This document shows positions 51,638-62,532 of a stretch of DNA of 64,000 bases, one piece after another. How positions within the stretch are numbered: position 1 is the stretch's first letter; every line of letters starts with the position of its first letter. The DNA is taken from the IMG/VR virus record IMGVR_UViG_3300015245_000006, positions 648 to 64,647 of that record. One strand, given 5' to 3'. The notes under the pieces were generated by a model. It saw nothing but the letters and a program-made list of their open reading frames with translations, searched no databases and was not told the origin of the DNA. The DNA comes from a virus. Lineage: Duplodnaviria; Caudoviricetes. A program made the position numbers and the translations under genes.

Positions 51638-54600
51638 GTGGCATTTAGCGATGCCATGATCGGCAGCAACGATTTCGATCCCCAGGCCGCGACCGAGGAT
51701 CTGATCCGCCGCCTATCGGACGAGCCATTGCCGGACACGCTCGATCCGAAAATGCTCAATACCCGGCTGGCGCGCAAGCTCGGCGCCGAGCCGCCGAAAG
51801 AAGTCAAGGCCCCGAAAGCACCGGAGCTTGACTTTTCGGCGCAAGCCATTCCGGCCAGCAATACCGAGCCTGGCAATGTGCTCGATTTCACCTCTCAGGT
51901 ACAACCAACTCCGGTAGCCGCAGCCGCGCCCGGAACGTCGGTTACGGATAAGCTTCAGAGCGTCCACGAGAATATTGATCCCGCGACGGCCGCCAAGGGC
52001 TTCGCGAAGGGTGCCATGCAGGGCACCGGCGGCGTGATGAAGGGCGCCGCGCGCCTTCAGAGCCAGGCGCAACCTTACCTCAATTCCCTCGAGTACGACC
52101 CCATGGGCAACGTCATCGGCCAAAAGCCGGTGCAGCCACCCACTCCAATCGAACAGAACCCGGTTTACCGGGCCGGCAAAGCCGTGGAAGGAGCCGCGCC
52201 AGGCATGACGCCGGCCGAGGAAAGCTCCCTGACCGGCCAAGTCGGCACTATGGCGGGCGGAATTGCGCCTTATGCCGCGGCCACCCTTGTCGGTGGTCCC
52301 GCGCTCGGCATCGCCGCGGGCTTCACCGGCATGGCGGCCGATACCTATGGCAAGGTCTACGAAGAGGCGATCGACAAAGGCGCCGACGAAGCGACCGCAC
52401 AGAAGGCCGCAAGCCGTTCCGCCTTGGTCGCCGGCGCATTGGGTTCGTTGCCGCTCGGAGCGGGTAAGCTCGCCAAAGGGTTGATCGCCAAGGCCGGGAC
52501 CAGCGCGGCAGCATTCGCCGGCCTCGGCGAGGCACAGCATTGGGCGCTGGAGGAAATCGCCAAGAGCTACGATCCGGAACGCGGCTATTCGCTCGAAGCC
52601 AAGCGGCTGATCGCCGAGCTGATCCTCGGCGCCGGCATGGGCGGCCTGCACTATGCCCAGACCGACCACGTCAACATCAACACGTCGAGCGGACCAACGC
52701 CGACGGCAGGATTGCCGCCTCCGGCCGGAGGTAGCCCGCAAGGCGGTGCTGGATATGGTCCGGGAGGACGGCCGAATCCTGGCGCTGGCGCGTGGCCTGG
52801 AGACACAGGTTCATGGTCTCAACCGCCTCCTGGCGGTGGACCGCAGCCGGGACCGGGACCTCAGCCTGGTCCGCAATCGAATGCTGGCGCCGCTGGGGGC
52901 GCGCATCAGCAGCAGGGACCCCAGCCGCCGCCCGGCGGACCTGGCGGCACCCAAAGTGGCCCACGGCCCAATGCAGGCGGTGGCGGCCCGGGATCGCAGC
53001 AGCAGGCCAAACCGCCGCCTGGCGCTGGCGCCGGCAAGGGCCCTGAGTTCACCATGGACGCCCGCATGCGCGCGAAGATGGAGAAGGTGTTCCGGATGTA
53101 CGAGCCGGGCGCCGACGTCTCCGGCATGTCGGATTCCGACCTATTCAACGCCGTCAACGAGCACCTGCGCGACACCTCCAAGACCGGCTACACGGCGAAG
53201 CCGGAGACAGAGCAGGAAGCAGCGGCGCGCGAGGCGACCGCCAAGCGGCGCGATGAGGACGAGATCCTGCGCAAGGCCGGCTGGACCGACGCGCATATCA
53301 ACGCGATGAGCGAGGAGCAGCGCGCGTCCTACATGGCGCGCGCGCAAGGCGCCAAGCCCGAAGCTGCTCAATCGCGGAAAGATCGGACAGATCGGAAAGA
53401 TTCGGAACAGGCGGCCGAGCCAAAAGTCGAAGAGCCAGTGGCCGCGGCCAGTGGTGAAAATCAAAATGCCCCAAAAAACGAGCAGTTAGATATTCACCAG
53501 GGCACGCGCGAGGCGCCGATCGTCCCGAAGACCGCCGACGAGGTGGTCAAGGCACAGGCCGCGGAGCCAACACCAGCCCAGGCCAGCGCCGAGAACTACC
53601 AGCACGCACATGTCGAGCTCCCGCAGTTCGGGCTGACGGGCGACCGCTCGGTGTCGATCGAGACCGGTGTTGGTCAGACCCGCAAGGGCATCGGCGAAGA
53701 TGGGAAGCCCTGGGAAGTCCAGATGCAGGGCGGCGCGTACGGCCGGATCAAGGGCACGAAGGCGGCCGATTTCAAGCACGACGCGGACGGCAACCAGATC
53801 CTTGACAAAGATGGCAATCCGGTCCGTCAGAACCTCGATATCAAGATCGGACCCAATCCGACGAGTCCGTACATCTTCATCGTCGACCAGCACGACCCGA
53901 AGACCGGCAAGTTCGACGAGCACAAGATCCTGGCCGGTTACCGCACGCCGCTCGATGCGCTGCACGGGCATGCGCTCGATTATGGGGATCACGCGGAGGG
54001 CCGAATCGGTCACGTCACCGCGATGGGACCGGAAGAGTTCAAGGCTTGGCTGAAGACGGACACGACAAAGCCGTTGAAGCCGGAGACCGCGCCGCCGACC
54101 TCGATGCGACCTGAAGCCGTCGAGGCCGGCGCGCGTACTCCTCTGACTGAGGCTCCGGGTGAAGGCGCCAATTCCGAAGTCCCGAAGGTCGAACCCAAGG
54201 GCACGGCCAAACCGAAAACAACTACTACGGGTTTAGGTTCCGAGCAGCCGCTCTCGTTGCTGCAATTTATCGCTTCGAAAGGCGGCATTAAGGCACATCC
54301 CGAGTTGGCGGCGATTGGTCTCACCGGTGTCCACAGGATTGTGGTACCGGGCCGGAAGGGCTTTGCAGCCACGGTTTCACCAAAGGGCATGCATCTCGAC
54401 AAGATGCGTGAGGCCGCGCAGGAAGCCGGATACCTGCACGGCGAAGGCGAAAAGACATCGACAATCCGTGACTTGCTGGACGCAATTGATACCGAGCTTC
54501 GGGGCCAGAAGAAGCATGCGGCTGGCGAGGAAGGCACCAAAACTAAGGCTGAAGCCACCCTGGCGGCCGAGCGCGAGGCGCACGAGCAGGAGCGCCATGA

Positions 54601-57600
54601 AGCCAATTACGGCGAATCGGAGCGCTCCGTCGAAATCGAATATCCGGAAAGCCCGCTGGAGGTGCGCGCCGCGGCTGGGCGCCTGATGGTGGACGAGGGC
54701 ATGGACGTGCACGACGCGGTCGAGCGTGCCTCGGTGCAGCTTGCCAACGAGGATGAGCACTACCGCGAGACACCAGACCAAATCATTGATACATTCGGGC
54801 CCGAGGCAGACCATGTTATTCACCGCGCAACAGCACATGAAGATGGCGAAGAGACTGCACGCGCGGTCGAAGCAGGAGCGCGACCCGGTGGCGGCGAAGA
54901 AGCAGAAGGGCTTGGCGCACACGTTCCGGAGACTGGCGCAGCAGGCGGCGAAGAAGCAACCGCCGAAGTAAAACCCACCGTCGAGAAAGGCGCCGACAAC
55001 AAGCCGCAGCTTGTTATATCTGGCGCCGAGAAGATCGGCCAGGGCGCGCAGGCCAAGCGCGCGGCTGCCGCAGCGCTCAAGCCAAAAGTCACACAAAAGG
55101 CCATGGACGTTGGCCTGTTCGGCGACGAGAAGGACCAGGCTGACCTCCTCGACACCATCCGCGCATCGGAGCGCAAGATCGAGAAGGCGCTCGGCAAGGA
55201 TGCCGACAAAGTGGCGCCGGTCGATATCGCTCGCGCCGCCGAAATCATGGCCGAGCACGAAGGCATGGAGCCGGCCACGGCCTTCGGCCAGGCTGTGATC
55301 GAGAATGCGGTCGATCATGACTTCATCACGCCGCAGCAAGCCGAGGAAGCCTATGGCGAAAAAGTCAAAAACATATTGGACGCCGGACGGCAAGGGGCAT
55401 CTGGCGGCGGGACACCTGTTGAGCAAGAACGCGCCGCACCTGGGGAAGAGCGCACCGGTAGTGCAGCGGAAAATGGCGAGCTTCCGGGCGGCGGCGAAGC
55501 TGGCGAAGCAGGCGAGTCCGAACCTGCCCGTGCCGAAGGTGCAGGCCTACCCGAGCCTGCCGGGCCTGAAGCCACCGAGCCAGGAGCCACCGGCGGGGCT
55601 GAAGCCGCTGGGGACGAAGCCGGCAACGCCGCTGAACAAGAGCCTGCCGCCAGCCCTACCGACTACGCCGGCCTGACACCGCTCGATCGCTATAAGGCGG
55701 TCGCAAAGCGCATCGTCGCGGGCGATATCGGCGCCGACGAATTGAAATCGGAGTTCGCGCGCGTCCTGCATAGCGGCGATTACATCAAGGCCGAATTGAA
55801 CAGCCGCACGATCAAGCAACTGGCGCCGCGTGGCGCTGGCAGCATGAGCAAGAAGGAGATTGTCGACAGGATCTACTCGAACATGCTCCAGCGCTTCAAC
55901 GTGCATGGAAGCGTGACGTGGCAGCCGATGGGCCAGGAAACCTTTGAGGGCGCGCTCGCCAATCGAATTGAGAACACCACCGACGCCGATATCCAAGAGG
56001 CGACCGCCAAGCGCCAGGCCGAAAAGGCTGAATGGGAACAGACTTACGGCGATCCGCAGAGCCTCTATCAGTTCGAAGCCTTCATCCGCGCCAAGGGATT
56101 CGGCAAGCTCACGCCGGAGCAGCGCGTTCGCTACGATGAACTGAGGGCCGAAGAGAATCGCCGCGAGCTCGAGAAGGCAAAGGCCGAGCGCAAGAGCGAT
56201 GTCCGCAAGGTCGATACCGAAGTCGGGATGGAACTCGTTGAGACCAAGCACACGCAGAAAGGCCACGACCTGTTCGTGGTCAAGATGGCCGATCGCGTTG
56301 AGGCTGAAACTTACAAGGAACTGAATAGCGCGGCGAAGCGCCTGGGCGGCTACTGGTCGAGCTATACCAAAGGTGGAGCGGTCCCGGGCTTCCAGTTCAA
56401 GACCAAGGATGCCGCCGAGAAGTTTATGGCGGTACGCTACGGCGACGTCAGCCGCAAGGATCTCGTCCAGCACAAGGAAGAGAAGCGGCTTGAAGGCGCG
56501 GTGGACAATCTGCGCGACCAAGCCGAGCGCATGACGGTCGCGGCTGATGAGAAGCTCGGCGCCGATCGGCTGGTGAACACCGCGCGACGGGCCAACATAG
56601 CGGCCGGCGCTGAGGCGAAAGCGAATGCCGATAAGGCGCTCGCGACCAGCATGCGCAACATCGCCGATGCAATCGAGGCTGGCGAGGCGACACATCTGGG
56701 CTGGTTGCGTACGCGCGCCGATGTCGAGATGCTGGATCGGATCACACGCGGTACCAGACGCGATTGGGTCGAGGCGCAAAAGCCGGCAGACTACGGCGAG
56801 CGGCAAAAGCTGGAAGAGAAGCCCATCAGCCAGGAGATGATCGACGCGGCGCATTACCCATATCCCTACGCGCACCGCGAGGAAGTTGTTAAGCTGGCGC
56901 AGGCGGTATCAAAAACTCCCGGTGCCAAGATGGCCGCAGCGCGCCTGATGAAGGAAGCGCGACTTGCCGAGTCGAAGAAGCAATGGCGCGTCGAAGCCAC
57001 ACACCTTGGCACCTTGGACGATTTCAAGACGGTCGGAGAAGCCGCAGCGAAACTTCCAGGCGCCAAGTATGGCGCAAACACCATGCTGGAGTCGTTCAAC
57101 GATTTTAACCGGCTGCGGCGCCTTGGCATCAACGATCTGCCCTCACTGCGCGCGGCCCTGCGTGAGTTCCTGAAATTCCGCGGGAGTGCCGCGAAGGCCG
57201 ATCCGATCAAGGCTGCGGAGCGCGCTCTGGTCGGGCGCAAGATCCCCGGATATTTCCCCACCCCGGATGCTCTGGTCGATCGGATGATTGAGGCGGCCGA
57301 TATCCAACCAGGCATGAGCGTGCTGGAGCCGTCGGCCGGCAAGGGCAACATTGCGGACAAACTCGCGCTCGCGGCTGATCCGGGCGCTTTGTCCGTGATC
57401 GAACCTGTGCCTGATCTGCGCTCGATCCTGAAGGCCAAGGGCCACGACATCGTCGATAGCGATTTCCTGGATCACAAGGAGCGCGGCTTCACCTATGGCG
57501 ACGTCTACCGCGCGCCAGACGGCACGCTTGGTGTCATGCACGGAAGCAACGGCATCGGCGGCAATCGTGTTGGGTTCGAGAGGCTGGACGCCAATGGCGA

Positions 57601-60600
57601 GCCATTCAAGGGAAGCCGCAGCTACTATGATCGCGGCGAATTAGAGCCGGTCGAGAAGCGCGGCTACAACAGCGGCTACGACCGCATCGTGATGAACCCG
57701 CCATTCGAGGATCGGCAGGACGTCGCGCATGTCCAGCACGCTTATGAGATGCTGAAGCCTGGCGGGCGCCTCGTTGCCATCATGTCGGAGGGGCCGTTCT
57801 TCGGGTCCGACAAGCGCGCGAAGGACTTCCGGGATTGGCTGGAGAGCGTCGGCGGCACGAGCGAGAAGAACCCGGAGGGCTCATTCGAAACCAGCGAGCG
57901 CTCCACCGGGGTCAACACCCGTATGGTAGTGATCAACAAACCGGCCGGCGGCTTTTCGGAGATGATAGCGCCGATGCTTGGTGCCAAAGCACAACAATTC
58001 ACGCTCGAACGTGGCCGCGCAACAGGCAATGAACATCTTGTGCTGTATGACAGCGAAGGCAATCTGGTTGCTCAAATCGAAGGTACCAAAAGCGGGTTGC
58101 GGTTCACGCCGGAAATCGAGCGCATGATTCGTGATCCGGATAACGACATTGTTGCTCATCATAATCATCCGATGAATCGTAGTTTCAGCGCAACCGACAT
58201 TGGTTGTCTGGCTGCGCCTGGACTTCGAACCGTGTGGGCACATGGTCACGGTGGCGCCATCTACCGAGTCAACCTGACACCTGAGGCGCGTCGGGCGCTT
58301 CCGATCGACATCAATCAGGCCGCCGGTTCGCTGGCAAAATATTGGTATGCGGCCGAAGGCGGACTGAAAGCATTTATCGACCCGCATTACAAGGCATCCG
58401 GGAAAGACCCGGAGTTTGCGGCAAACTTCGAAGTGGCATGGGCACATCTCATCAACGAGATCATGCGTGAGGCAGGGATCACGGAGTATCAGACCAACTT
58501 CGAAACCGACCCTTCTATTACAGGTCTCCCGAAACTATCTCAGGCCATGGCATATGTGGCCGACACCTTTAGAAAGGGCTTGTTCGGTGACGAAGGACCC
58601 CCGGCCGCTGGGCGGCTTGATCGACGACCCGACTCCATTCGACACCCTGGAAACATGGGAGTCTCATTTGATCGATCTGAAGTCGCAACCCCCGTCAACC
58701 CTGGGCAACGAGGCGCTTCACCACGCGGCAAAAATGATCTCCGAGAAGAAGAAAAAGGACTGAGTCCGGCGCCGACGGAACCGCCCGATCGCAGCGTCAC
58801 CCTTGGCGCCTGGGGCGATCCATCCAAGGTGATCCGCGAGTTCAAGCGCTTCTGGATGTCGACCTTCCAACCCGAACTGGTGAGCGATCGCGCGCTGATG
58901 GCAGATCCGCTGTTCGCGCGCTACAAGTCCGCCAGCGCGCAGGAAAAGGATGCGCTGGTTCGGCAGAGCGAAAAGGAGTGGAATTACTGGAACAAGCGCG
59001 GCGATGCAGAGCGCATTCGCTTTATCGACGACGTCGAGACACGCGTGTTCGGCAATGTCCCAGCCGATCCGGTGCAAGCCGCGATGGCGCGGCGGTATCG
59101 CGCCATGCTTGATGCCAATTGGGCTTTGGAGAAGCGTTATGGTTCGCAGGCGGCGTTTGTCGAAGACTACTTCCCGCACATCTGGGAAAGGCCGGACGAT
59201 TGGCGCGCCTTTGCCGAGGCTCGCAGCGCCCAGATGGGACCAACCTGGTTCCAGAAAAAGCGCACCATCGACTACATTACCGACGGCTTGGCCGCTGGCC
59301 TTAAGCTCAAATATACGAACCCTGTCGACATCGTGGTGCACCGTCTCCTTTCCGGAGTCGATATGCGTCAGCGTATGGAATTGCTCTACCAGCTCAAGAA
59401 AGAAGGGCTTGCTTGGGAGGGGGCTCACGGCGGGGCTCCCTTGGTAGAGCGCGGCTGGCGCGCCATCAATGCGCCGGACCGCAAGCAGTGGGTTATCCAT
59501 CCGGATGTGCAACCACTTTGGAAGAACGCCGTCGAGGCCAAGGGGCTGTGGCAGGACGAAAGCCTCGGCGGCTCGATATTCCGCGGCTGGATGAGCTTCA
59601 AGAACGCCTGGGTCCCGGTGAAGCTCGCGATGAGCGCGTTCCATCCGCTGCACGTCCTGCACATCAACTACTCCAACGGCATGGGCCAGGGCTGGGATAA
59701 CTTGGTCAAGGGCAAGGACCCGGTCGGCGCGCTGAAGGCGGTCGCCAAGGGCTTCATGGGTCCGATGATCGCGGCGCCTGGAGCCACGATCGGGGCTGTG
59801 GCAGGTACGGCTCTGGGTTCTACCATGGGTATGCCGGGCTGGGGTGGCCTGCTTGGCTCGATCGCGGGCTCGGCAGCCTTTGCGGGCGCCAAGCGCGCCG
59901 GCCTGGTGAGTGCGCCAGCCACCCGCGAGGCGCTCGCCAGGAGCGCCTGGAGCACGCGGCCGAACAGCGCTGGCTGGAATAGGCTGACACCCGCACAGCG
60001 CGCCGACGTGGCCCTAATGACCGATGGTGGCTTCTCGCCGCAACTGTCCGAGCAATTGAAGATCGGCGCCAAGCGGCAGCTCGCGGTGGCGTTCCAGAAG
60101 ACCCTGCGCGGCGAGGCCAAGCCCGGCGACTGGCGCAAGATGGTGGCGGCCTCGATGCGGCGCGGCATCGAGGTGTTGCAGGCGCCCATCTTTGAGCGCT
60201 GGATTCCCGAGCTGAAGACCTCGGCGTATCTCCAGGCCGCCTCGGCGCTGTTGAAGCGCCAGCCGCAACTCTTGACCGAGCATGCCGACCGGCGCCTGGC
60301 GCTGCGCGCAATCGCCAAGTCGATCGACAACCGCTTCGGCGAGATGTTCTATGGCACCCTGTTCTGGAACCGATACCTGAAAGACGCCGCAATCGGTTCG
60401 TTCTTGTCGCTCGGCTGGAATCTCGGCTTCGTGCGTGAGTTCGGGGGTGCCGCGATGGAGACGGTGTCGCGCCCGGCCGGGCTTATTCCTGGTCTTAAGC
60501 CAGGCGCACCGCGCAAGCAGATCAGGAGTGCGACGAACAAGATTCCGTTCGTGATCGCCTACGTGGCTTCGGCAGCGCTAATCAACGCCATCATGACCAA

Positions 60601-61489
60601 GCTGTTCTCCGGGGAAAATCCGGAGGGGCTCGACTTCATCTTTGCGCGGATTGGTGGCGAAAACCCCGATGGCTCGGCTCGGCGCGTGACGAACATGTTC
60701 TACCTGCGCGAGGTGCCGATGCTGATGAAGCATGTGCAGGAGCGCGGCGGCAACTTCATGTCCGGAGCCGGCGAGATGGTTTGGAACAAGATGATGTTCG
60801 GGCCCTTCCACGAGCTTCTCAACAACCGCAACTACTACGGCTACAACATCTGGGACGAGAACGCGCCGCTCTATAAGCAGATCTGGCAGGCGATGCGCCA
60901 CGGGCTCTTCGGCGAAAGCAGCCCGATGACCTTCTCTGGTGCGGGACAAGCCGCGCGTTTGTCCGGAAAAGAGTTCCCGAGCGCGAAAGAGGCGATCGAG
61001 CACCCGGACCGGATGATGGACGCCTTGCGCGCGAAAGGTGTGGATATGAGCTTCCTTGGCTTCGGACCGGCTCCCAGCTATGTGGAGAAGTCTGCAATCC
61101 AGAATAGAATCGGTTACCTCTACCGCGAGCACGTGGCGCCGGTGTCCAAGCCACAAGCCGAGGACGAAAACTCAAAGGAGAAGATGGCGGTTCGCACCGC
61201 CATCATGATCGGGAAAAGAGACAAGGACGCCGACATGATCAACCTCGCTCGCGAGCGGGGTCGAGCGATCGGGCTCACGCCAAAGTACATGGCGAATATC
61301 GGTAAGACGCCAACGGATGTGTATCTGTTCTCGCGGCTGCCGGATGAAGACCAGCGCTCGCTTTTGCGCAACGCTTCGGAGGAGGAGCAAAGTCGTTACT
61401 TCAGGCACGCGCACCTGAAGGTCAGGCAGGAGATCAACCGCGCCCGCTACGCGCCACAACCGCCAGCAGCGCAACAACAGGGACTTTGA
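51638..61489 (+). CDS. giant polyvalent internal virion protein (InPase-like, N6-adenine MTase, JAB/MPN-like and structural domains; DarB-like)
   Basis: 3283 aa; YGRIKGT...FDEHK (InPase-like); FPTP, VLEPSAGKG, NPPF (MTase); E..HNHP...S.TD (JAB). Confidence 0.85.
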   Translation: MAFSDAMIGSNDFDPQAATEDLIRRLSDEPLPDTLDPKMLNTRLARKLGAEPPKEVKAPKAPELDFSAQAIPASNTEPGNVLDFTSQVQPTPVAAAAPGTSVTDKLQSVHENIDPATAAKGFAKGAMQGTGGVMKGAARLQSQAQPYLNSLEYDPMGNVIGQKPVQPPTPIEQNPVYRAGKAVEGAAPGMTPAEESSLTGQVGTMAGGIAPYAAATLVGGPALGIAAGFTGMAADTYGKVYEEAIDKGADEATAQKAASRSALVAGALGSLPLGAGKLAKGLIAKAGTSAAAFAGLGEAQHWALEEIAKSYDPERGYSLEAKRLIAELILGAGMGGLHYAQTDHVNINTSSGPTPTAGLPPPAGGSPQGGAGYGPGGRPNPGAGAWPGDTGSWSQPPPGGGPQPGPGPQPGPQSNAGAAGGAHQQQGPQPPPGGPGGTQSGPRPNAGGGGPGSQQQAKPPPGAGAGKGPEFTMDARMRAKMEKVFRMYEPGADVSGMSDSDLFNAVNEHLRDTSKTGYTAKPETEQEAAAREATAKRRDEDEILRKAGWTDAHINAMSEEQRASYMARAQGAKPEAAQSRKDRTDRKDSEQAAEPKVEEPVAAASGENQNAPKNEQLDIHQGTREAPIVPKTADEVVKAQAAEPTPAQASAENYQHAHVELPQFGLTGDRSVSIETGVGQTRKGIGEDGKPWEVQMQGGAYGRIKGTKAADFKHDADGNQILDKDGNPVRQNLDIKIGPNPTSPYIFIVDQHDPKTGKFDEHKILAGYRTPLDALHGHALDYGDHAEGRIGHVTAMGPEEFKAWLKTDTTKPLKPETAPPTSMRPEAVEAGARTPLTEAPGEGANSEVPKVEPKGTAKPKTTTTGLGSEQPLSLLQFIASKGGIKAHPELAAIGLTGVHRIVVPGRKGFAATVSPKGMHLDKMREAAQEAGYLHGEGEKTSTIRDLLDAIDTELRGQKKHAAGEEGTKTKAEATLAAEREAHEQERHEANYGESERSVEIEYPESPLEVRAAAGRLMVDEGMDVHDAVERASVQLANEDEHYRETPDQIIDTFGPEADHVIHRATAHEDGEETARAVEAGARPGGGEEAEGLGAHVPETGAAGGEEATAEVKPTVEKGADNKPQLVISGAEKIGQGAQAKRAAAAALKPKVTQKAMDVGLFGDEKDQADLLDTIRASERKIEKALGKDADKVAPVDIARAAEIMAEHEGMEPATAFGQAVIENAVDHDFITPQQAEEAYGEKVKNILDAGRQGASGGGTPVEQERAAPGEERTGSAAENGELPGGGEAGEAGESEPARAEGAGLPEPAGPEATEPGATGGAEAAGDEAGNAAEQEPAASPTDYAGLTPLDRYKAVAKRIVAGDIGADELKSEFARVLHSGDYIKAELNSRTIKQLAPRGAGSMSKKEIVDRIYSNMLQRFNVHGSVTWQPMGQETFEGALANRIENTTDADIQEATAKRQAEKAEWEQTYGDPQSLYQFEAFIRAKGFGKLTPEQRVRYDELRAEENRRELEKAKAERKSDVRKVDTEVGMELVETKHTQKGHDLFVVKMADRVEAETYKELNSAAKRLGGYWSSYTKGGAVPGFQFKTKDAAEKFMAVRYGDVSRKDLVQHKEEKRLEGAVDNLRDQAERMTVAADEKLGADRLVNTARRANIAAGAEAKANADKALATSMRNIADAIEAGEATHLGWLRTRADVEMLDRITRGTRRDWVEAQKPADYGERQKLEEKPISQEMIDAAHYPYPYAHREEVVKLAQAVSKTPGAKMAAARLMKEARLAESKKQWRVEATHLGTLDDFKTVGEAAAKLPGAKYGANTMLESFNDFNRLRRLGINDLPSLRAALREFLKFRGSAAKADPIKAAERALVGRKIPGYFPTPDALVDRMIEAADIQPGMSVLEPSAGKGNIADKLALAADPGALSVIEPVPDLRSILKAKGHDIVDSDFLDHKERGFTYGDVYRAPDGTLGVMHGSNGIGGNRVGFERLDANGEPFKGSRSYYDRGELEPVEKRGYNSGYDRIVMNPPFEDRQDVAHVQHAYEMLKPGGRLVAIMSEGPFFGSDKRAKDFRDWLESVGGTSEKNPEGSFETSERSTGVNTRMVVINKPAGGFSEMIAPMLGAKAQQFTLERGRATGNEHLVLYDSEGNLVAQIEGTKSGLRFTPEIERMIRDPDNDIVAHHNHPMNRSFSATDIGCLAAPGLRTVWAHGHGGAIYRVNLTPEARRALPIDINQAAGSLAKYWYAAEGGLKAFIDPHYKASGKDPEFAANFEVAWAHLINEIMREAGITEYQTNFETDPSITGLPKLSQAMAYVADTFRKGLFGDEGPPAAGRLDRRPDSIRHPGNMGVSFDRSEVATPVNPGQRGASPRGKNDLREEEKGLSPAPTEPPDRSVTLGAWGDPSKVIREFKRFWMSTFQPELVSDRALMADPLFARYKSASAQEKDALVRQSEKEWNYWNKRGDAERIRFIDDVETRVFGNVPADPVQAAMARRYRAMLDANWALEKRYGSQAAFVEDYFPHIWERPDDWRAFAEARSAQMGPTWFQKKRTIDYITDGLAAGLKLKYTNPVDIVVHRLLSGVDMRQRMELLYQLKKEGLAWEGAHGGAPLVERGWRAINAPDRKQWVIHPDVQPLWKNAVEAKGLWQDESLGGSIFRGWMSFKNAWVPVKLAMSAFHPLHVLHINYSNGMGQGWDNLVKGKDPVGALKAVAKGFMGPMIAAPGATIGAVAGTALGSTMGMPGWGGLLGSIAGSAAFAGAKRAGLVSAPATREALARSAWSTRPNSAGWNRLTPAQRADVALMTDGGFSPQLSEQLKIGAKRQLAVAFQKTLRGEAKPGDWRKMVAASMRRGIEVLQAPIFERWIPELKTSAYLQAASALLKRQPQLLTEHADRRLALRAIAKSIDNRFGEMFYGTLFWNRYLKDAAIGSFLSLGWNLGFVREFGGAAMETVSRPAGLIPGLKPGAPRKQIRSATNKIPFVIAYVASAALINAIMTKLFSGENPEGLDFIFARIGGENPDGSARRVTNMFYLREVPMLMKHVQERGGNFMSGAGEMVWNKMMFGPFHELLNNRNYYGYNIWDENAPLYKQIWQAMRHGLFGESSPMTFSGAGQAARLSGKEFPSAKEAIEHPDRMMDALRAKGVDMSFLGFGPAPSYVEKSAIQNRIGYLYREHVAPVSKPQAEDENSKEKMAVRTAIMIGKRDKDADMINLARERGRAIGLTPKYMANIGKTPTDVYLFSRLPDEDQRSLLRNASEEEQSRYFRHAHLKVRQEINRARYAPQPPAAQQQGL
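54813..54971 (+). CDS. nested +1-frame gene N1 (52 aa, basic helical)
   Basis: CCGAGG-N6-ATG; MLFTAQQHMKMAKRLHARSKQERDPVAAKKQKGLAHTFRRLAQQAAKKQPPK. Confidence 0.65.
   Translation: MLFTAQQHMKMAKRLHARSKQERDPVAAKKQKGLAHTFRRLAQQAAKKQPPK
55353..55676 (+). CDS. nested +1-frame gene N2 (107 aa, basic, Pro-rich tail)
   Basis: CCGAGG-N6-ATG; MAKKSKTYWTPDGKGHLAAGHLL...FRAAAKLAK. Confidence 0.65.
   Translation: MAKKSKTYWTPDGKGHLAAGHLLSKNAPHLGKSAPVVQRKMASFRAAAKLAKQASPNLPVPKVQAYPSLPGLKPPSQEPPAGLKPLGTKPATPLNKSLPPALPTTPA
58587..58763 (+). CDS. nested +1-frame gene N3 (58 aa)
   Basis: AGAAAGGG-N8-GTG; ...LIDDPTPFDTLETWESHLIDLKSQPPSTLGNEALHHAAKMISEKKKKD. Confidence 0.65.
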   Translation: MTKDPRPLGGLIDDPTPFDTLETWESHLIDLKSQPPSTLGNEALHHAAKMISEKKKKD

Positions 61490-62532
61490 TTCCCATGAAG
61501 CTCGATCCGACTATCGTTCGGCGGTTGTGGCCCCGTGCTCCCCAGAAGAAAATCGATGCGATGTGCGCAGTCTCGGAGGAAGTGTTTGCGGAGCATGACA
61601 TCGATGACGTGCATGTCGTGATTCAGTTGATGGCGAATATCAGCCACGAGAATGGAGCCGGCACCATCGTCCGGGAAAGCGGCAACTATCGCGCCGAACG
61701 AATCGTTGAAATCTTCGGAGCCGGAAAGTCATCCGCCAAGGTCACGCCGGAGGAAGCCGTAAAGCTTGCGCACAACGGGCCAGCGCTGTTCGACCGGGTC
61801 TATAACCTGCCTGGCTCGCCCAAGCTTGCGCACGAGCTTGGCAACCACGAGCCTGGCGATGGCAATAAATACCGTGGCGGTGGCGATCTTCAACTCACCG
61901 GCCGCGCCAACTATGAACGGATCGGCAAGATGACCGGCCATCCGGAGATCGTGACCGATCCAAATCTCCTGGTCGATCCTGTCGTCAGCTTTCGTGTTGC
62001 GGTCGCGGAGTTCGTAGCGCTTGGTTGTATCGCACCTGCTTCACGCATGCAGACCACGCGCGTTCGCCGGCTGGTGAATGGCGGCACGAATGGCCTTGCC
62101 GAGGTGACGGTTTGGGTCGGTCACTGGTCGGAAGAGATGCCGGACGTCGAGACGCCGCCGGTGGCGCCGCGCGGTGCGGACACGGACAACAAGAGTCTGA
62201 TGGGCTCCCGGATCATGAAGGGTGTTGTCTCGACCGCGGCCACCACCGCAGTTGCGACCGCTTCGAAGGTTGCCGAGAACGCCAACACCACGAGCCAAAC
62301 GGTCGATGTGTCTTCGGTGCAGGATCACATCCAGAAGGCCAACGACACCATCACCACGATCCAGACCACGGTGGACTCCGGCAAGGTGCTCGTGCAAACG
62401 GTCAAGCCGTTTCTCGGTCTGCCGCCGAACCTTTGGGCCACCATCGCGATTGTCGCATCGATCATTGCGATTGCGACGCTGACCTATACCGGCTGGCAGC
62501 GCTGGGTGAAGCTCCGGGACGAGGGCGTGTGA
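61486..62532 (+). CDS. GH19 (chitinase-like) endolysin with C-terminal TM segment
   Basis: HENGAG, GDGNKYRGGGDLQLTGRANY, VNGGTNGL; alternative start 61495. Confidence 0.85.
   Translation: MIPMKLDPTIVRRLWPRAPQKKIDAMCAVSEEVFAEHDIDDVHVVIQLMANISHENGAGTIVRESGNYRAERIVEIFGAGKSSAKVTPEEAVKLAHNGPALFDRVYNLPGSPKLAHELGNHEPGDGNKYRGGGDLQLTGRANYERIGKMTGHPEIVTDPNLLVDPVVSFRVAVAEFVALGCIAPASRMQTTRVRRLVNGGTNGLAEVTVWVGHWSEEMPDVETPPVAPRGADTDNKSLMGSRIMKGVVSTAATTAVATASKVAENANTTSQTVDVSSVQDHIQKANDTITTIQTTVDSGKVLVQTVKPFLGLPPNLWATIAIVASIIAIATLTYTGWQRWVKLRDEGV

Follow-up and report, generated by a model that had tools for sequence, protein, structure and literature searches.

Nested reading frames in a giant phage gene

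The stretch of viral DNA analysed here (the window) spans 64,000 nucleotides, positions 648 to 64,647 of the virus record IMGVR_UViG_3300015245_000006, and has a G+C content of ~61%. It contains a giant gene predicted to encode a phage polyvalent protein. Inside this host gene lie two small open reading frames (ORFs), N1 and N2, on the same strand and in the +1 frame relative to the host, each following one copy of a small helical domain that the host frame encodes twice. Judged by comparison with related sequences, N1 and N2 are very probably real protein-coding genes, situated in the acidic spacers after the duplicated domain. The features concerned are the following.

51638..61489, + strand: host gene, a single ORF of 3283 amino acids predicted to encode a phage polyvalent protein (from the ORF list and its translation)
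54653..54820, + strand, host residues ~1006-1061: small helical domain, copy 1, from hidden Markov model (HMM) hits, ending in a conserved T-[FY]-G
54813..54971, + strand: N1, host +1 frame, 52 residues, basic, in the acidic spacer after domain copy 1
55214..55378, + strand, host residues 1193-1247: small helical domain, copy 2, from HMM hits, with three helices and an invariant A-Y-G end
55353..55676, + strand: N2, host +1 frame, 107 residues, directly after domain copy 2

The two domain copies comprise ~50 residues each, the similar segment of copy 1 covering residues ~1006-1057. An earlier note on this DNA, made from the sequence alone, had remarked that the host segments preceding N1 and N2 resemble each other, and the profile-profile comparison that it called for confirms this. 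Profiles built separately for copy 1 (6 sequences) and copy 2 (16 sequences) align with an hhalign probability of 86% and an E-value of 5.1e-6; the match runs the full length of the domain, 47 columns that extend from helix 1 to the final [FY]-G. Compared directly by BLAST, the two segments showed no significant similarity. Y53 and G54 are invariant in the 16-sequence alignment of copy 2, and the AlphaFold2 model of this copy (mean predicted local distance difference test score, pLDDT, of 86.8) consists of helices at residues 8-20, 26-40 and 46-53. Pfam, PHROGs and NCBIfam returned nothing meaningful for either copy, Foldseek found no match to the copy 2 model in the PDB at E <= 0.001, and HMMER profiles detected no third copy of the domain or of a nested ORF in the window. 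DPY-30 docking domains were the top Foldseek hits of the domain, at E about 3, and are a lead at most.

The presence of both nested ORFs in the host +1 frame agrees with the earlier note, whose starts at 54726 and 55305 are replaced here by the ATG codons at 54813 and 55353 that are conserved in relatives. N1 follows the pattern M-x-F-x-P-x-Q-H...M-A..L...D-P...K-K...F-R.L-A, and N2 the pattern MAKKSK.YW.P.AKGHL.A...LSK.AP.L.KSAPV.Q.KLASFRAAAKLA, followed by a Pro/Lys/Thr-rich tail. The ATG of N2 is made from host Tyr-Gly codons (tATGg) within the last codons of domain copy 2. N2 comprises a basic helical hairpin core (residues ~12-53) and the tail; its AlphaFold2 model has helices at residues 13-26, 28-32 and 34-53, with a core pLDDT of about 80 and an unstructured tail. 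We propose that each nested product would be a basic helical hairpin, to which N2 would add a disordered Pro/Lys-rich tail. The contrast between acidic host segments and basic nested products that had been pointed out also holds, with isoelectric points (pI) of 4.2 and 4.4 for the former versus 12.0 (N1) and 11.5 (N2) for the latter, calculated on the earlier ORF extents.

Neither N1 nor N2 matches a Pfam, PHROG or NCBIfam family, and the N2 model has no Foldseek match in the PDB at E <= 0.001. In the ESM Atlas, N1 scored at most 0.86 (clusters of 52-57-residue hypothetical proteins), under the lead threshold of 0.9, and N2 gave no usable hit. The N2 profile found only 6 similar entries among 1.84 billion representative proteins and the N1 profile only 3 in a 5.8-billion-cluster index; these searches reach HMMER-level similarity, and that for N1 covers only candidates sharing exact words with the query. 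The 6 N2-like and 3 N1-like entries are all singletons from contigs of 546-7294 bp. Gene callers cannot report a gene lying wholly inside a longer ORF on the same strand, and it is due to this blind spot that N1- and N2-like proteins are represented in public sets by no more than a few singletons on short fragments. Such singletons are what a gene caller yields where the giant ORF is cut, so no free-standing family is seen.

Conservation and selection in the overlaps

Relatives of the locus were sought with host-domain patterns, which take no account of the nested frame. The scan returned 21 loci; removal of L011 (the same as L002), L015 (the same as L009), L017 (which repeats L016 on one contig) and the truncated L014 left 17 that were assessable. 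An N2-like ORF with the same ATG and a similar stop position follows the copy-2 domain in 15 of these 17, so the domain does not commonly occur without a nested ORF, a situation that the earlier note had considered damaging to its proposal. Three further contigs were found with the N2 profile, and on each the ORF is again nested in a long host ORF right after the domain. The alignment of copy 1 was too variable for scanning, and the conserved stretch just upstream was used in its place. All 8 copy-1 sequences contain an N1-like ORF (M.F.P.QH..MA..L...DP...KK....FR.LA) with conserved ATG and stop. Overall, 19 distinct sequences have an N2-like ORF and 8 have an N1-like ORF, with start and stop conserved.

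In the two loci without an N2-like ORF (L013:4043-4300 and L021:2993-3250), the spacer to the next module measures ~20-35 residues, versus ~100 residues with N2; the length of the spacer seems to exist for the nested gene. In L013 the codon that would provide the N2 start reads TAC, not TAT. L021, a prophage locus of Bradyrhizobium macuxiense, does carry an N1-like gene. At L040:2808-2994 a divergent N1-like +1 ORF that contains Cys (...TAQECAEAARRCLRQA...DP...) was observed behind a domain that is scarcely recognisable (E 0.008). Its apparent start is a TTG preceded by AGGAG, and the N1 family may reach beyond the profiles used.

Substitution patterns change frame where the nested ORFs begin. 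Within the copy-2 domain, differences at host codon positions 1/2/3 are 0.26/0.23/0.52, the pattern of an ordinary gene, with 61% of amino acids identical in the host frame versus 36% in the +1 frame. Over the next 55 codons, which form the N2 core, the host values are 0.46/0.29/0.28, or 0.29/0.28/0.46 at positions 1/2/3 of N2. The most variable site is here the third codon position of N2, whose frame has 62% amino-acid identity versus 40% for the host frame. The copy-1 domain is likewise normal, with 0.37/0.39/0.57 at host positions 1/2/3, and the N1 overlap gives 0.43/0.42/0.36, a less sharp reversal than for N2, with an identity of 46% in the nested versus 32% in the host frame.

Ratios of nonsynonymous to synonymous differences (pN/pS) were computed in an overlap-aware manner, each possible change being classed by its effect in both frames. 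For N2 the nested frame has a pN/pS of 0.52 (bootstrap 0.35-0.72) and the host frame 1.02; for N1 the values are 0.70 (bootstrap 0.54-0.89) and 1.12. It speaks against leaning on these figures that they derive from uncorrected, saturated p-distances between phylogenetically related pairs, which makes the ratios conservative, and that the bootstrap resamples columns, not lineages, giving intervals that are not phylogeny-aware. A sliding scan from residue 12 to residue 1340 of the host, made on host-protein-guided alignments that favour the host frame, found 13 of 127 windows in which variability does not peak at host position 3, and every one of them lies within N1 (residues 1060-1090) or N2 (residues 1250-1340). 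In the overlaps, these comparisons show, the host amino-acid sequence evolves as if unconstrained and purifying selection acts on the nested frame.

Codon choice points the same way. The Tyr codon at the N2 start is TAT in all 19 sequences, while elsewhere in the same host ORFs TAT and TAC occur 401 and 524 times (43% TAT). Third-position GC in the N2 overlap is 0.79 for the nested frame and 0.56 for the host frame, the rest of the host gene having 0.77; in the N1 overlap it is 0.86 (nested) and 0.41 (host). It is higher in the nested frame at every locus (19/19 for N2, 8/8 for N1), as is the codon adaptation index (CAI) at 17 of 19 N2 loci and 8 of 8 N1 loci. We rejected the use of third-position GC and CAI as proof that the nested frame is the older, since neutral sites drift to high GC anyway. 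Selection on the nested frame, as the earlier note had supposed, is therefore borne out in the relatives by substitution phase, pN/pS, TAT fixation and codon composition.

These data bear directly on whether N1 and N2 might be untranslated chance ORFs of a GC-rich, Glu/Ala/Gly-rich spacer, owing their basicity and similarity to duplicated host sequence. When the host protein is kept and its synonymous codons are redrawn, the +1 frame is open with a median probability of 0.55 for N2 and 0.97 for N1. ORF length alone is accordingly no evidence, and the case is carried by the comparison with relatives. Several further long ORFs also occur in this gene's +1 frame, at 52653-53309 (218 residues), 53667-54053 (128 residues), 54315-54686 (123 residues) and 55011-55298 (95 residues), and the basic residues of N1 and N2 are largely forced by host Glu codons. 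These other ORFs show normal host-frame periodicity where relatives cover them and look like compositional by-products. Chance explains neither the restriction of the phase anomaly to N1 and N2 along the gene nor the tracking of the nested frame by substitutions, identity, third-position GC and CAI while the host frame is neutral, and it leaves the conserved ATG, the invariant TAT and the conserved stop positions unaccounted for. We regard it as extremely improbable. With the nested protein fixed instead, the host frame would be open with a median probability of only 0.11 (N2) or 0.25 (N1); it is open in all sequences, so that ribosomes on the giant ORF have to traverse both overlaps, which argues that read-through by the giant ORF is itself maintained.

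Initiation, duplication and possible docking

Several points weigh against reading N1 and N2 as genes duplicated together with their domains, whose products act with the host protein. We infer translation from the starts at 54813 and 55353 from the DNA, and the Shine-Dalgarno (SD)-like motif of N2 is irregular, lying 6-7 nt upstream in 8 of 19 sequences, 12 nt in 6 and 3 nt in 1, and being absent from 4. Homology of N1 and N2 is not established by sequence, their similarity being marginal (P about 0.01-0.02), and HMMER profiles of the two give no cross-hit in the window. The absence of N2 from 2 of the 17 copy-2 domains (L013 and L021) means that the domain can exist without an adjacently encoded partner. 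No family, fold or stand-alone homologue from the searches above hints at what N1 or N2 does. Finally, a co-folding pass of the kind reported below for copy 2 and N2 is, by its own calibration, more often wrong than right unless binding is already likely. We have high confidence that N1 and N2 are real genes and low confidence in any function.

The small proteins would be made by internal initiation on the late structural mRNA, with the N2 start being an ATG kept by the fixed TAT-GGN pair. Internal initiation is favoured by the conserved ATG, the fixed TAT of N2, the SD-like motif of N1 (GGAG/GAGG/AGGA 6-8 nt upstream of the ATG in 8 of 8 sequences, such strings being common in the Glu/Gly-rich coding sequence here) and locus L019, where the +1 frame opens late. 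Given the irregular signal before N2, we keep frameshifting as a minor rival. N1 and N2 would then not be separate genes, and a programmed +1 frameshift would yield a truncated giant protein composed of the domain and the basic hairpin, perhaps as one helical bundle. The hairpin does lie directly after the domain, co-folding places the two together with weak support, and selection on the nested frame would be expected equally. Frameshifting is nevertheless very improbable: the ATG is conserved throughout (19/19 for N2, 8/8 for N1), the N2 Tyr codon is fixed as TAT though TAC gives the same host residue, and in the upstream sequences inspected at the N1 and N2 loci neither a slippery motif nor one with a stop was seen to be conserved. 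A shift site would have hardly any space in L019, where the +1 frame becomes open just 2 codons ahead of the ATG. The regular spacing of the N1 motif, and the AGGAG that precedes the TTG even in the divergent L040, also argue for separate initiation.

That the domain and its nested ORF were duplicated as one two-frame unit was proposed in the earlier note on the strength of the similar host segments and a weak pattern common to N1 and N2. The host domains are homologous and a +1 ORF lies at the same place after each. The shared pattern exists, coincides with the best hhalign alignment and fits the host register; it is also weak, and by profile the similarity of N1 to N2 is only marginal. The hhalign E-value was 0.14 with 6 versus 16 sequences and 0.06-0.08 with 8 versus 19. 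With 11 versus 22 sequences P was 0.0099, and 2 of 100 column-shuffled profiles reached the observed score. An [FW]-x-P motif (residues 3-5 of N1, residues 9-11 of N2) stands at an equal codon distance from the domain-ending Gly in both copies. Because of the host-domain homology, together with the position and register of the nested ORFs, duplication of a two-frame unit is the simplest account, and we consider it fairly probable on this comparison of the copies. The modules of this region differ in position, order and downstream neighbours across relatives, and the unit of domain and nested gene may move among polyvalent-protein architectures as a cassette.

The earlier note had also taken the acidic/basic contrast to suggest direct binding. 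This is unsupported, as the contrast is largely forced by the genetic code: GAR read one base later is ARN, and Lys/Arg codons whose first two bases also belong to a host Glu codon number 11 of 14 in N1 and 9 of 16 in N2. The acidic stretch overlapping each nested gene is moreover the spacer, not the folded domain. Co-folding of domain copy 2 with N2 residues 1-56, a check suggested in that note, scored 0.32 versus 0.01 for the best control, with runs agreeing in at least 83% of contacts and a partner pLDDT of at least 65. The calibration set comprised 80 solved complexes, of which 58 reached the mark, and 110 mismatched pairs, of which 2 did; only 7 of the 80 complexes reached it with a score of 0.60 or lower, as did both of the passing mismatches. 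The result is rated as weak support. On this model the hairpin might dock on the preceding three-helix domain and so act or travel with the giant protein, a suggestion that we make tentatively. The constant adjacency of domain and nested ORF through shuffling is compatible with binding, and is also explained by their shared DNA.

We give an even chance to N1 and N2 being real nested genes whose products do not touch the domain. They would then be small basic proteins that bind nucleic acid or are directed at the host cell, for example DNA-associated internal proteins; the genes would have found room in, or been captured by, the spacer, and adjacency would reflect duplication of the cassette. 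A pI of about 11.5-12 and the Pro/Lys/Thr-rich tail of N2, unstructured in the model, suit such a role. The domains that lack N2 in L013 and L021, the code-forced charge complementarity and the weakness of the co-folding support also fit. It accounts less well for the domain and nested gene having been kept together through shuffling (19 and 8 cases), for the N2 start falling within the last codons of the domain, and for a co-folding score well above controls; nor was any DNA-binding family or fold matched.

A broader reading, which we think unlikely, is that the "linkers" of giant phage polyvalent or ejection proteins can be captured genes read through by the giant ORF, with the hairpin docking on the three-helix domain encoded just before it, and domain and nested partner spreading as a portable two-frame cassette. 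Modules would have been fused by bypassing a gene rather than deleting it, and the small gene would have stayed the unit under selection. If this is true, the giant protein carries non-covalent small partners into the capsid and the host.

Known systems and genomic setting

The spanins Rz and Rz1 of phage lambda, whose products bind each other, are the textbook case of a functional embedded phage gene. Like Rz1 within Rz, N1 and N2 are small same-strand genes in the +1 frame, wholly inside a larger phage gene, with a proline-rich product. They differ from Rz1 in having neither cysteine (and hence no lipobox) nor a hydrophobic signal-like N-terminus, in the window and in the aligned relatives; with lipobox cysteine and signal sequence both missing, an outer-membrane spanin of the Rz1 type is excluded. 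Unlike the Rz/Rz1 pair, the host here is a 3283-residue polyvalent virion protein and not a membrane spanin, its frame evolves neutrally where the two overlap, and the unit is probably duplicated.

Two-frame coding, here with probable separate initiation, is shared with phiX174 B in A and E in D and with tombusvirus p19 in p22, as far as the consulted portions of the sources describe them (PMC8227390, PMC3494269, PMC11044054). In those overprinted genes, as here, selection is detectable in the alternative frame. Overprinted genes of small viruses are usually ascribed to genome-size pressure, whereas the present phage is of about 63 kb. They also differ in that the nested frame dominates selection and codon usage here and the overlap does not extend beyond a spacer that separates folded modules.

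With the polyvalent class, in the portion of PMC5512222 available to us, the locus shares a giant multi-domain host protein, InPase and methyltransferase domains, relatives bearing LPD38 and a setting among virion or ejection genes; as that portion presents it, the class does not include genes nested in the spacers between modules. A term search of the same text gave 0 occurrences of "overlapping", 0 of "frameshift" and 2 of "nested", both for a hairpin fold. Full-text literature searching, with supplements outside its scope, found no report of nested genes in polyvalent-protein genes. New with respect to known embedded genes are the dominance of the nested frame, the confinement of the overlap to spacers of a giant polyvalent protein, the probable duplication of the unit and its portability.

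The usual picture of an overlap is reversed at this locus, the long frame being the passive one. If our reading is true, the spacers of polyvalent and other giant phage proteins merit a systematic two-frame scan, and the locus would be a clean natural system in which to study the origin, duplication and shuffling of dual coding. It would also point to an unrecognised class of small basic proteins made alongside ejected virion proteins.

The host protein contains an InPase domain at residues 647-806 (Pfam PF18823, E 6e-24), a methyltransferase-type region at residues ~1322-2104 (phrog_15406, E 7e-211) and a long C-terminal part. Upstream of its gene lie terminase, portal and tail genes, a virion structural protein and a "DNA ejection protein", and an endolysin gene lies directly downstream. 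A search with host residues 960-1270 found 37 giant homologues of 2229-5362 residues, often bearing InPase, LPD38 (PF18857), SNF2-type or N6-methylase (N6-MTase) domains and many of them on contigs of ~63 kb. The host is thus a giant polypeptide that unites several effector or enzymatic domains unrelated to one another, in a virion-associated context, and on this sequence evidence it is a phage polyvalent protein in the sense in which the consulted portion of Iyer et al. 2017 (PMC5512222) uses the term. It is probably packaged in the virion and ejected. In a preprint on phage phi24B (10.64898/2026.04.10.717836), an LPD38 polyvalent protein was found in virions and an ejection-protein role was proposed, according to the portion of that preprint available to us. 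Searching GenBank phages with a 500-residue region of the host by tblastn gave no match. Single-sequence scans of viral and genome collections likewise found nothing, whereas alignment-based scans succeeded.

Within host residues 960-1270, three modules recur in relatives at variable positions and sometimes in a changed order.

Host residues 960-1105, + strand: module A, which includes domain copy 1
54950..55162, + strand, host residues ~1105-1175: module B, "PGAEKIG.GEQAQR...KPKVAQKP.D.GLFGD", between the two units, from the alignment of relatives
Host residues 1180-1270, + strand: module C, which includes domain copy 2

Module B is ordinary single-frame coding sequence, with normal host periodicity in the windows at residues 1110-1180. 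It is the most widely shared piece of the 37 homologues, in which it occurs at very different positions and occasionally in two copies.

A long low-complexity stretch rich in Gly, Pro and Gln lies at 52650-53100 (residues ~340-480), in the N-terminal third of the host protein. At the other end of the gene, the endolysin-like gene at 61486-62532 (phrog_181, E 5e-44) starts 4 bases ahead of the end of the giant ORF, and this start/stop overlap suggests translational coupling of the two. Lastly, L016 and L017 are on one metagenome contig of 475,698 bp, in the ranges 155844-164104 and 218800-227060, so that the locus is present twice, ~63 kb apart. The domain and the N2-like ORF are identical in the two copies, which suggests that the contig is either a concatemeric assembly of a ~63-kb phage genome or an array of tandem prophages.

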